A stretch of DNA of 64,000 bases from Callorhinchus milii (lineage: Eukaryota). The stretch is from assembly GCF_018977255.1 (NCBI RefSeq), contig NW_024704743.1, positions 25,980,001 through 26,044,000 of the forward strand. The letters are read 5' to 3'. The number at the start of each line of letters is the position of its first letter. Position 1 is the stretch's first letter. The translations under genes and the position numbers were made by a program. This document shows positions 23,795 through 61,587 of this stretch, piece after piece. Below the pieces are notes generated by a model. It made no database searches and was not told the origin of the DNA. It saw nothing but the letters and a program-made list of their open reading frames with translations.

Positions 23795-25218
23795 ATGAGT
23801 TGTGGAATTTTCATTCTTCTTTGTGGCTTTTATATGTTGCCAGTTTCCAGTAACTTCACTAGACAAACAACATTGGGTTTGGTTAGGGGGAAATTGGAGC
23901 AATGGGACAACAGAAGTGTGGAATGCTATCTTGGAATACCGTATGCTGCTCCTCCCGTGAAATCCCTTCGATTCCAACCTCCCCAACCACACCCCGGATG
24001 GAAGAAGCCTCTTGATACAATCAAATTTGGCCCAATATGTCCTCAACAGCTTCTATCTTCTGGTCAGTTGTCTGGCAAAGAAGACTGTCTTTGGCTGAAT
24101 ATCTACGTTCCCCATAAAGAGAGAATTCCAGACGTTAACAGTGAGTTGTTGCCTGTGATGGTGTGGATCCATGGAGGGGCCTTTGTCCTCGGTTCTGGAA
24201 ACTACAAGGCTCACGTACTGGCTGACTTTGGGCAAGTCATTGTGGTGACCATCAATTATAGATTAGGAGTGTTTGGCTTTCTTTCCACAGGGGACAGTGC
24301 TGCAGTCGGTAACAGTGGACTTCTTGACCAACGATTTGCAATACTGTGGGTAAAAGCCAACGTCAAGCATTTTGGTGGCAATCCAGATGCTATCACAATA
24401 TTTGGACAGTCTGCAGGAGGTGCTAGTGTTGGATTGCATTGTCTATCACCACTCAGTTCGGGGCTTTTTAAACAAGCAATTTTAGATAGTGGGGTAGCTA
24501 TTGCACCCTGGGCAACAAGGTTGGACAATCCTCTCCTCTGGGTGAAAAAACTTGCTTCCATTGTATCTTGCCCAGTTGCTAATAGCCTAAAGCTCATCAG
24601 TTGCCTACAAAGAAAAAAAACTCTGGAGCTCATTAAAGGTGCCATTCAACTGACCAACTTTAACTTTACATTTGTACCAACGGTGGATGGATCATTTCTT
24701 CCTAAAACACCACTAGAACTCTCTGAAAATACAAGCTTAGTGAAACGGTTCTCCTATATGGCAGGGGTCAATAGTCATGAAGGAAGTGCTTTCTGGCCAT
24801 GGATAAAAGAGATCAAATCGCAAGCTGATTTTGCCAATTACATAATGTCGTTTTTTCAAGCAGGAACAGAGAAGACTGTGTCTGATGCTATATTGTGGCA
24901 ATACAGAGACTGGATGGACCTGAATTACAGCTCATTCCACATCCAGAGACAAACACTGGATGCAGTTGGTGATGTGGGCTTTGTTGCACCATTGGTTATG
25001 ACAGGTGACTTCATAACAAAAGCCAGCAAAGTTTATGTATATTATTTTACTAGGCGACCTAATGCATCTGTCTTCCCTGAATGGATCGGAGCAGGGAATG
25101 GCGATGAGCTTGCGTTTGTATTTGGGATACCAATATTTGGAGGACCACTTATAGGAGAGGAGGAACATGTACTGAACCAACAAATAATGTCATATTGGAC
25201 AAATTTTGCCAAAACTGG
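23795..25218 (+). CDS. Exon 1: signal peptide plus most of esterase domain 1
   Basis: ATG in GCCACGATG context with an in-frame TAA upstream at 23735. Hydrophobic N-terminus [19 protein letters not shown]. Motifs [52 protein letters not shown]. Donor GG|GTAAG, phase 2. Confidence 0.93.
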
Positions 25219-61200: not shown

Positions 61201-61587
61201 GGCAGGTTGTACCGCAGACAGGAAACGGCCCTTTGGAGCGAGCTTGTTCCCCAGATGCAGCGTGAAGAATGGTGCAGCAGTGACTGGAAGTCATCAACAC
61301 CCGGGACGAAGACAACCACCGTTGGACCCACCACTACCCAACCTGCAGTGGAGTGCAAGGAAGAGACCCAAGATGTCCTCACAATGCAGCTGACTGCCAC
61401 TGAGACAGTGACTGCATTCTACGTCAGCTTTGCCCTGTTATTTATTGAAGCATTCACGATTGTAGGGCTGTCGTGCCGGCTCTACGCACAACGCAAGAAG
61501 CTACAAGATCCACTCGCAAGATCCATCACGTCAGAAATCCCTTTGATGGGCCCCACTGACAAAATCATGTGCCAGACTTGGTTTTGA
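23795..61587 (+). CDS. 18-exon gene encoding a 1720-aa type I membrane protein with three tandem carboxylesterase type-B (COesterase) domains
   Basis: Manual splicing: 23795-25218, 30003-30192, 31877-32159, 35753-35956, 36624-36786, 42009-42244, 42934-43110, 44197-44359, 47624-47830, 49914-50033, 51059-51201, 52186-52277, 52770-52916, 53182-53292, 55001-55656, 56277-56462, 58052-58225, 61101-61587. All introns are GT-AG with matching phases; the exons sum to 5163 nt with no internal stop. Esterase motifs (GIPYA, EDCL.LNI, YRL, G.(S/G)AG, WTNFA.TG-NPN, terminal W helix) occur three times in order. Confidence 0.85.
28203..28955 (-). mobile_element. L2 fragment with internal deletions (intron 1)
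   Basis: Antisense [16 protein letters not shown] and 3' UTR. Other intron-1 L2 pieces at 27585-27880(-) and 29425-29846(+). Confidence 0.85.
30003..30192 (+). CDS. Exon 2: end of domain 1 and linker
   Basis: Acceptor atttttag; [15 protein letters not shown]...YLQLD...[19 protein letters not shown]; donor AAG|GTACAG, phase 0. Confidence 0.88.
31100..31650 (+). repeat. Unclassified repeat family C (intron 2)
   Basis: Colinear with 17440-17995. Confidence 0.8.
31877..32159 (+). CDS. Exon 3: start of domain 2 (CEL-like), no signal peptide of its own
   Basis: Acceptor tgttag, phase 0; [16 protein letters not shown]...[12 protein letters not shown]...[13 protein letters not shown]; donor G|GTAAAG, phase 1. 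Confidence 0.9.
35753..35956 (+). CDS. Exon 4: domain 2 oxyanion loop
   Basis: [12 protein letters not shown]...[29 protein letters not shown]; phase 1/1. Confidence 0.93.
36624..36786 (+). CDS. Exon 5: domain 2 nucleophile elbow GESAG
   Basis: [14 protein letters not shown]...[15 protein letters not shown]; Ser codon 36725-36727; phase 1/2. Confidence 0.93.
36810..37098 (-). mobile_element. SINE family A (intron 5)
   Basis: Antisense family A body and part of the head. Confidence 0.85.
38390..39340 (+). mobile_element. L2 3' fragment (intron 5)
   Basis: [16 protein letters not shown]...[12 protein letters not shown]...LHWLP and 3' UTR. Confidence 0.9.
40920..41238 (+). mobile_element. SINE family A inserted into a family C repeat
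   Basis: Full head and (TTA)n tail; family C sequence continues on both sides. Confidence 0.9.
42009..42244 (+). CDS. Exon 6: domain 2
   Basis: RVISESG...AVGCP...MMFCLR...FVPTIDG; phase 2/1. Confidence 0.92.
42934..43110 (+). CDS. Exon 7: domain 2 catalytic acid (Asp)
   Basis: EFLPHEP..LF...[12 protein letters not shown]; Asp codon 43014-43016; donor G|GTGAGT; phase 1/1. Confidence 0.9.
44197..44359 (+). CDS. Exon 8: domain 2
   Basis: [12 protein letters not shown]...TDMQFCAP...HA; phase 1/2. Confidence 0.88.
45900..47072 (-). mobile_element. L2 RT and 3' fragment (intron 8)
   Basis: Antisense [19 protein letters not shown] and 3' UTR. Confidence 0.9.
47624..47830 (+). CDS. Exon 9: domain 2 catalytic His
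   Basis: TYAYLF..PSR...[19 protein letters not shown]...YWTNFAKTG; His codon 47709-47711; phase 2/2. Confidence 0.93.
49914..50033 (+). CDS. Exon 10: domain 2 C-terminal part (not in the ORF track)
   Basis: Acceptor ttatttaatag; [27 protein letters not shown]...NLSPK; donor AA|GTAAGA; phase 2/2. Confidence 0.88.
50552..50856 (+). mobile_element. SINE family A (intron 10)
   Basis: Family A head, body and tail. Confidence 0.85.
51059..51201 (+). CDS. Exon 11: domain 2 terminal helix, linker and first strand of domain 3
   Basis: [48 protein letters not shown]; phase 2/1. Confidence 0.88.
52186..52277 (+). CDS. Exon 12: domain 3 (not in the ORF track)
   Basis: [30 protein letters not shown]; phase 1/0; an alternative in-frame acceptor at 52171 is possible. 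Confidence 0.85.
52770..52916 (+). CDS. Exon 13: domain 3
   Basis: PPEDARPW...GPACPQ...[13 protein letters not shown]; phase 0/0. Confidence 0.92.
53182..53292 (+). CDS. Exon 14: domain 3 with altered oxyanion loop HPG (not in the ORF track)
   Basis: [37 protein letters not shown]; acceptor ttaacag, donor CAG|GTAAAT; phase 0/0. Confidence 0.9.
53643..53958 (+). mobile_element. SINE family A (intron 14)
   Basis: Family A head, body and tail. Confidence 0.9.
54693..54753 (+). repeat. 61-nt intronic copy of exon 15 sequence 55546-55606
   Basis: 57/61 identical by manual alignment. Confidence 0.9.
55001..55656 (+). CDS. Exon 15: domain 3 core with GHGAG elbow (no Ser)
   Basis: [18 protein letters not shown]...GNVGFLD...[17 protein letters not shown]...AISSSG...LGCP...CLQ...FLPVIDG...GLTSDEA; phase 0/2. 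Confidence 0.93.
56277..56462 (+). CDS. Exon 16: domain 3
   Basis: [14 protein letters not shown]...DHKWLAPS...LADLHS..TFLYIY; phase 2/2. Confidence 0.9.
57245..57830 (-). mobile_element. Two L2 3' fragments (intron 16)
   Basis: Antisense L2 3' ends with tails at ~57247 and ~57485. Confidence 0.75.
58052..58225 (+). CDS. Exon 17: domain 3 His region (frame differs from the ORF track)
   Basis: [27 protein letters not shown]...[21 protein letters not shown]; phase 2/2. Confidence 0.92.
58278..58799. mobile_element. Non-autonomous Tc1/mariner-pogo (Tigger-like) DNA transposon (MITE)
   Basis: TA|CAGTGGAAGCTGCTT ... AAGCGTCTTCCACTG|TA: imperfect TIRs with TA flanks; internal repeated GGACAAAAT motif at ~58335, 58385 and 58752. 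Confidence 0.75.
59803..60110 (+). mobile_element. SINE family A (intron 17)
   Basis: Family A head, body and tail. Confidence 0.88.
61101..61587 (+). CDS. Exon 18 (last coding): end of domain 3, Thr-rich stalk, TM helix, cytoplasmic tail
   Basis: NPN...WPSY...[48 protein letters not shown] followed by basic RLYAQRKK; ends QTWF-TGA. Confidence 0.9.

Follow-up and report, generated by a model that had tools for sequence, protein, structure and literature searches.

An apparently undescribed gene family of sharks and rays with three tandem carboxylesterase domains and a predicted membrane anchor

In a 64,000-nt stretch of the elephant shark Callorhinchus milii genome (contig NW_024704743.1, positions 25,980,001 to 26,044,000 of the forward strand; hereafter the window), we analyzed a gene at 23795..61587 (+) that encodes three tandem carboxylesterase (COesterase, PF00135) domains, designated D1, D2 and D3, followed by a stalk, one transmembrane (TM) helix and a short tail. 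The gene model was confirmed, and it represents a real, apparently undescribed gene family conserved in sharks and rays. By a modest preference, we read its product as an old chordate ecto-lipase/esterase, a type I membrane glycoprotein with three alpha/beta-hydrolase domains facing the outside or the lumen.

The gene model was rebuilt from tblastn matches and splice sites throughout the window. It comprises 18 coding exons and 17 introns, all with GT-AG borders and compatible phases, and the spliced frame of 5163 nt encodes 1720 amino acids (aa) with a single, terminal stop, which reproduces the exon chain and frame proposed in a first-pass annotation made from the sequence alone. The start codon of exon 1 has a good Kozak context, polyadenylation hexamers were found 3' of exon 18 at 61647-62267, and named C. 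milii database proteins are 98.6-99.7% identical to parts of the 1720-aa model. A chance frame was excluded, because each domain is 65-75% identical to the shark and skate orthologues (D1 66-75%, D2 72-75% and D3 65-70%). The coding exons are as follows.

Exon 1, 23795..25218 (+): start codon, signal peptide and most of D1 (aa 1-475), intronless, PF00135 E 2e-134; S206 at 24410, E329 at 24779 and Asn435 at 25097 (AAT; His in other species)
Exon 2, 30003..30192 (+): C-terminal end of D1 (aa 475-538), with a phase-0 donor into D2
Exon 3, 31877..32159 (+): start of D2 (aa 539-633), PF00135 E 4.9e-29
Exon 4, 35753..35956 (+): oxyanion motif of D2 together with its surface loop insert of the CEL type (aa 633-701)
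Exon 5, 36624..36786 (+): D2 nucleophile Ser735 (GESAG)
Exon 6, 42009..42244 (+): D2, aa 755-834
Exon 7, 42934..43110 (+): D2 catalytic Asp861 (43014)
Exon 8, 44197..44359 (+): D2, aa 893-947
Exon 9, 47624..47830 (+): D2 catalytic His976 (47709)
Exon 10, 49914..50033 (+): D2, aa 1016-1056
Exon 11, 51059..51201 (+): last helix of D2, then the linker and the first D3 strand, uninterrupted by a stop
Exon 12, 52186..52277 (+): D3, aa 1104-1134
Exon 13, 52770..52916 (+): D3, aa 1135-1183
Exon 14, 53182..53292 (+): altered oxyanion motif of D3 (HPGSL)
Exon 15, 55001..55656 (+): D3 core, with Gly1279 replacing the catalytic Ser (55175) and Glu1406 (55556), PF00135 E 8e-65
Exon 16, 56277..56462 (+): D3, aa 1439-1501
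Exon 17, 58052..58225 (+): D3 His1517 (58098)
Exon 18, coding part, 61101..61587 (+): last part of D3, the Ser/Thr stalk with its flanking Cys, the conserved motif next to the membrane, the TM helix and the tail with a class I PDZ-binding motif, then the stop

D1 is thus encoded almost wholly in one 1424-bp exon, while D2 and D3 are cut by many introns, and the sole intron position common to the three domains is a phase-2 intron in the NFAxTG/NPN motif.

The rebuilt frame bore out the protein layout that had been proposed, consisting of a signal peptide (aa 1 to ~19), three COesterase domains (D1 ~20-535, D2 ~539-1075 and D3 ~1091-1617) joined by short linkers of ~5 aa (D1/D2) and ~15 aa (D2/D3), a stalk at 1619-1645 with 11 Ser/Thr among its 27 residues and a flanking Cys on each side (C1617 and C1644), a TM helix beginning at ~1662, and a short tail whose last residues are QTWF. 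The catalytic positions in C. milii are S206/E329/N435 in D1, S735/D861/H976 in D2 and G1279/E1406/H1517 in D3, and the three domains are mutually 35-40% identical. A PF00135 domain count, which the first-pass annotation had suggested as a check, gave three stretches above the curated cut-off in each of the full-length Stegostoma and S. torazame orthologues, and the family also matched window exons 1, 3 and 15 separately. Only COesterase and related alpha/beta-hydrolase families were reported by Pfam, with no glycosidase or GDSL-lipase repeats.

The whole 18-exon chain very probably forms a single transcript, as judged from sequence comparison. To census the exon junctions, we took the 40 of 549 stored proteins with >55% identity over >150 aa, and these orthologous models represent 16 named cartilaginous fish and the coelacanth (17 named species) plus three Logan records. 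The exon 1/2 junction was crossed by models of 7 of the 17 species, D1/D2 of 10, exon 10/11 of 9, D2/D3 of 11 and exon 11/12 of 9; all five were crossed in S. torazame, Stegostoma, Mustelus, Chiloscyllium punctatum and Leucoraja. The fusion of D2 and D3 is visible in the DNA itself, because exon 11 runs without a stop from the end of D2 into the first D3 strand. For exon 3, there is no in-frame start upstream, since the acceptor AG sits within an in-frame stop. An intron scan agreed with the claim that a second signal-peptide exon is absent: introns 10 and 11 held no candidate, and intron 2, in which no AATAAA or ATTAAA was found, held one weak signal-peptide-like candidate (31580-31621).

The alternative, as in the older C. 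milii RefSeq annotation, is that two or three separate tandem carboxylesterase genes lie here and that the long frame is a prediction fusion. Fusion of clustered esterase genes is a frequent annotation error, and C. milii and several other species are indeed annotated in pieces, the C. milii locus having been split into three truncated models (XP_007887965, -964 and -963). Moreover, read-through past exon 1 meets a stop immediately, and no RNA junction was seen: four sequencing runs on 23700-32300 were DNA-like and swamped by repeats, with no exon-exon joint among the rows listed. Among 24 sequencing runs listed, no RNA run with the locus appeared, which carries no information on its expression. 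Further points weigh against a single gene, in that the current C. milii model at the locus is a 475-aa protein of exon 1 alone, the cross-species junctions all come from automated gene models, and the exon 1/2 join is the weakest, as models of 6 named species end at the end of exon 1. Nevertheless, the C. milii pieces break inside domains and not between them: the first halts ~60 residues short of the end of D1, the second begins in exon 2 at the end of D1 and continues across the D1/D2 junction, and the third begins at the last helix of D2, and among them a signal peptide was found in exon 1 only. In addition, D2 and D3 share exon 11, conservation reaches the exon 2 donor even in the coelacanth, and the lone candidate of intron 2 falls within a high-copy repeat, and background candidates of this weak kind number 6 in 32.6 kb of introns. 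Separate genes are therefore very improbable, and the crossed junctions, the breaks within domains and the shared exon 11 uphold the one gene claimed at first.

The three domains had initially been described as inactive, active and inactive, which is right for the C. milii residues but not as a family pattern. At the position of the D1 catalytic His, 17 of 19 motif-matching models have His (12 named species including the coelacanth, plus one further), and Asn was found only in the two C. milii models; the pattern of the family is therefore active, active and dead. Asn435 is unlikely to be an error, because Asn is also present in the C. milii model of the older assembly, a sequence distinct from that of the window at another site (L184Q). 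A same-species contig over the Asn435 codon, with 2 differences in 848 bases at positions not given, neither confirms nor refutes it. D1 thus appears to be a second esterase (Ser-Glu-His), predicted to be active in sharks, rays and coelacanth, whose His was lost in the elephant shark.

D2 has human bile-salt-activated lipase (1F6W) as its best PDB match (E 1.6e-136) and shares 45-46% identity with bovine CEL and with C. milii CEL. Its Ser-Asp-His triad (S735/D861/H976), which is of the CEL type according to the CEL features given in part of a published study (PMC3227413), is invariant in every orthologous model covering D2. Like CEL, D2 carries an 8-9 residue surface loop insert over the active site, which among 56 domain rows was found only in D2, the CELs and tunicate CEL-like domains, being absent in D1, D3, CES and neuroligin. 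Phylogenies were calculated by FastTree for 152 and for 320 domains, and by IQ-TREE under LG+C20 for 56 domains picked from the 320, a choice that favored multi-domain proteins and omitted thyroglobulin, most invertebrate rows and Styela LOC120330182. In all trees D2 was the nearest group to CEL, with support of 92/63 in IQ-TREE (91/76 together with the tunicate CEL-like domains) and 1.0 in both FastTrees. D2 is a paralogue and not an orthologue of CEL, since it falls outside the clade (100/100) that unites the CELs of lamprey, C. milii, teleosts and mammals; C. milii also possesses CEL as a distinct protein (P0306). CEL consists of a single secreted domain, whereas D2 is an internal domain of a membrane protein. 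Taken together, D2 is a putative CEL-type lipase/sterol-ester hydrolase with the CEL lid loop.

D3 has Gly in place of the catalytic Ser in all orthologous models covering it, yet between C. milii and the sharks and skate it is conserved nearly as well as D1 and D2. The AlphaFold model of the sawfish D3, calculated with a 125-sequence alignment, showed an intact fold (predicted local distance difference test, pLDDT, ~95 over the domain; mean 89.6), a disordered stalk and one TM helix; a homodimer prediction scored 0.18 and was not used as evidence. The closest structures to this model are neuroligins, then AChE and CES1. The tail is likewise conserved: all 14 of the complete C-termini from chondrichthyans fit S/T-x-hydrophobic, the class I PDZ consensus, which NHERF/PDZK1 scaffolds bind, as stated in a portion of a preprint (bioRxiv 10.1101/2025.07.21.665923). 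The TM segment (~61440-61470, exon 18) has a mid-helix polar residue in 10 of 10 aligned chondrichthyan sequences (Glu; Gln in one species), which may serve helix-helix pairing.

Relatives of the whole architecture were found in tunicates. In the 56-domain tree, D1 is sister to domain 1 of four-domain Styela clava proteins (98/84). Further, a profile was made from the chondrichthyan juxtamembrane/TM segment alone and scored on 81 TM-bearing tails: four Styela multi-domain proteins, at E 1e-5 to 0.01, came directly behind the four chondrichthyan rows, while every other row had E of at least 0.33 and the named neuroligins E of at least 2.8. The grouping of D1 with Styela, the shared layout and the profile ranking make a shared chordate ancestor likely. 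Beyond chordates, the two- or three-domain TM proteins of starfish, hemichordates and Lingula have a last domain that is mostly dead, and the class I motif was terminal in 12 of 19 invertebrate multi-domain TM proteins checked; a bilaterian ancestor is possible. The hemichordate, starfish and Lingula proteins P0042, P0068, P0084, P0098, P0094, P0101, P0105, P0109, P0397 and P0018, all uncharacterized, have 1-2 active COesterase domains and, nearest the membrane, a degenerate one; their juxtamembrane motif is similar, and they often end in T-x-L/M/F. The layout of D1, D2, a dead domain, a TM helix and a PDZ tail is probably older than the tunicate/vertebrate split. Neither these relatives, nor the conserved PDZ-binding tail, nor the relation of D2 to CEL had been noticed in the first-pass annotation.

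Several tree results speak against so deep an origin. The support of deep nodes is moderate (D2 with CEL 92/63, with the tunicate domains 91/76, and D3 with other dead domains 84/86), the grouping of D1 with Styela domain 1 reached only 0.49 in the 320-row FastTree, and the dead fourth domain of Styela did not group with D3 in the careful 56-domain tree. A single clade of all dead membrane-proximal domains, including the Styela fourth, appeared with 0.89 in the first FastTree and was absent from the careful tree, although it was not rejected (approximately unbiased, AU, test, p=0.41). Recent triplication of one esterase was also considered, and a clade of D1, D2 and D3 was rejected (AU p=4.4e-6, log-likelihood 110.8 lower).

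The distribution was examined by three word-based searches (8000 candidates scored, best 120 each) and a full HMMER scan with D3 (best 150). No bony-vertebrate orthologue was among the matches listed except D1 of Latimeria, and coelacanth D2 and D3 were not found; since the genomes themselves were not searched directly, these matches suggest loss in bony vertebrates only weakly. The coelacanth D1 orthologue is 64% identical, and its model runs along exon 2 up to that same donor site, beyond which unrelated sequence follows. The first ~140 residues of this model, Latimeria XP_014349412.1 (P0380), resemble open reading frame (ORF) 2 of a long interspersed nuclear element (LINE), joined to the D1 orthologue and not flagged by Pfam; its start is probably mis-annotated. 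We propose, tentatively and as a rather doubtful scenario, that an ancient multi-lipase, anchored in the membrane at the gut surface of chordates (perhaps of bilaterians), survives among vertebrates in this gene. Tunicates and cartilaginous fish would have retained it, the coelacanth in part, and most bony vertebrates would have lost it; pancreatic CEL would be a secreted single-domain offshoot of D2, so that luminal lipid digestion would have begun on the brush border. Tunicates also have secreted proteins with a CEL-like domain and without a TM helix (P0034, P0053 and P0471), and because P0471, a single domain with a signal peptide, sits in the tunicate CEL-like group, derivation of CEL from the multi-domain gene is not established in its direction.

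In the ecto-lipase/esterase reading, D2, and D1 in most species, would hydrolyse lipid esters at the cell surface, while D3, which adjoins the membrane and is dead throughout cartilaginous fish, would be a folding, spacer or binding module. The Ser/Thr stalk, presumably O-glycosylated, would raise the head off the membrane, and the class I PDZ tail would tether the protein to a scaffolded domain of the plasma membrane, most likely at an apical epithelial surface. An apical location is probable, and that the tissue is the gut is in our estimate evenly balanced. Two observations weigh against this function. Of the bile-salt arginines of CEL (Arg83 and Arg446, as we map them onto the 1F6W alignment), D2 keeps one of the two, with Val/Met at the first position and, at the second, Arg in C. 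milii and Lys in three sharks, so that bile-salt activation of D2 is uncertain. Neuroligins, the closest structures of D3, also end in a class I PDZ motif, and the motif alone is therefore no pointer to the gut.

The last point leads to a neuroligin-like adhesion or receptor protein, in which D3, the stalk, the TM helix and the PDZ tail would be the core and the distal esterase domains accessory or ligand-binding. Neuroligins have the same module: their COesterase domain is dead by Ser to Gly replacement, their stalk is of the O-glycosylation type, and a single TM helix leads to a class I PDZ tail. The top PDB matches of D3 are neuroligins by sequence as well as fold, and the elephant-shark D1 without its His is still 74-75% identical to shark D1. 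But neuroligins have one domain only and no active esterase domain, D3 lies outside their clade (100/98, IQ-TREE), the chondrichthyan anchor profile found no match in their unrelated anchor sequences, the margin over AChE and CES is narrow (all 32-35% identity), and the triad of D2 is invariant wherever covered, all of which makes this explanation unlikely. A polyprotein or shed precursor, cut to release soluble D1 and/or D2 with D3 as chaperone and anchor, the reverse of lactase, appears improbable. Lactase-phlorizin hydrolase is processed in such a way with its inactive part as an intramolecular chaperone, as described in part of one paper (PMC6412902), in thyroglobulin the ChEL domain, a COesterase fold that is dead, works as chaperone and dimeriser, as seen in part of a preprint (bioRxiv 10.1101/2025.06.18.660348), and the tunicate CEL-like proteins without a TM helix are secreted; however, the linkers are short and no conserved polybasic site was seen in them. 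An enzyme of internal compartments (endosome, lysosome-related organelle or Golgi), hydrolysing or building esters, would have the same topology as the nematode CEST esterases, which are TM-anchored. The conserved class I PDZ tail and Ser/Thr stalk are more typical of plasma-membrane proteins, and we regard an internal location as highly improbable.

No description of the triple esterase was found in the literature, with subscription journals, supplementary tables and ESTHER lying outside the search, and RefSeq lists the full-length protein of several sharks as one predicted 'uncharacterized protein', which agrees with the first-pass view that it is not an already characterized protein. Pieces of it are misnamed in many chondrichthyan genomes as acetylcholinesterase-like, neuroligin-like or CES5A-like, and the passages seen of a catshark pancreas transcriptome study mention CEL and not this gene (PMC4362833).

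Elsewhere in the window, three ARAGORN transfer RNA (tRNA) calls, at 7390-7459 (-), 16483-16552 (+) and 53646-53715 (+), are the heads of a ~320-bp element with nine near-full-length copies in the window, which is most likely a tRNA-derived short interspersed nuclear element. LINE-type retroelement remains were seen at 2084-4740 and as intron fragments, e.g. 27500-29800, 38360-39300 and 45900-46900; a 372-aa ORF at 2084-3199 matched Exo_endo_phos_2 (E 5e-6), just under the curated cut-off. No further protein-coding gene was evident in the window, for which no systematic search was made. Single N bases occur at 14474 and 37979, both outside coding exons.

These findings give a well-studied fold a new layout, in which active esterases sit atop a dead domain, followed by a stalk and a PDZ-tethered anchor, and they correct how this locus, split and misnamed in many chondrichthyan genomes, is annotated. 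According to part of a human-focused review (PMC12467236), triglycerides are not acted on by any post-pancreatic mucosal enzyme, to which a CEL-like domain anchored in the epithelium of lipid-dependent cartilaginous fish, if true, would be an exception; if true, the gene would also be a testable starting point for the origin of vertebrate CEL.

Among known systems, the first-pass annotation had pointed to lactase-phlorizin hydrolase and PLB1, an analogy that seems reasonable, since both combine tandem homologous hydrolase domains, part of them active, with a C-terminal TM anchor. PLB1 has a repeat structure. Its membrane-bound mucosal nature and the four homologous domains, inactive chaperone portion and TM anchor of lactase-phlorizin hydrolase are given in parts of the respective sources (PMC12467236; PMC6412902). 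Their folds are different, however, and the inactive domains of lactase-phlorizin hydrolase are distal and cleaved off, whereas the elephant-shark dead domain adjoins the membrane; the elephant-shark domains are also ancient paralogues and not a recent internal repeat, unlike those of both enzymes. Within the COesterase fold, the 'ces2b' models of teleosts and chondrichthyans (P0006, P0011-P0013, P0036, P0041, P0043, P0047 and P0049, from many teleosts, sharks and rays) similarly carry several domains, 2-4, in one vertebrate ORF, and the fact that they recur across species points to a real second family of tandem esterases and not to annotation fusions. The earlier statement that vertebrate members normally have one such domain therefore has exceptions, although these come from another clade and have no TM anchor: the ces2b models belong to the CES clade, keep the triad in all domains and lack the TM-plus-tail anchor, the teleost forms ending in HxEL of the endoplasmic reticulum (ER)-retention type, while the elephant-shark protein lies outside the CES clade and has neither an ER-retention nor a non-TM C-terminus. 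The Styela clava proteins LOC120335102, LOC120335133/4 and LOC120344729 resemble it in that domain 1 groups with D1, domain 2 groups with D2/CEL, the last domain has Ser replaced by Gly, and a homologous juxtamembrane/TM segment precedes an S-x-L tail; they differ in having four domains and a long-branched dead domain that is not placed with D3, and they are equally undescribed.

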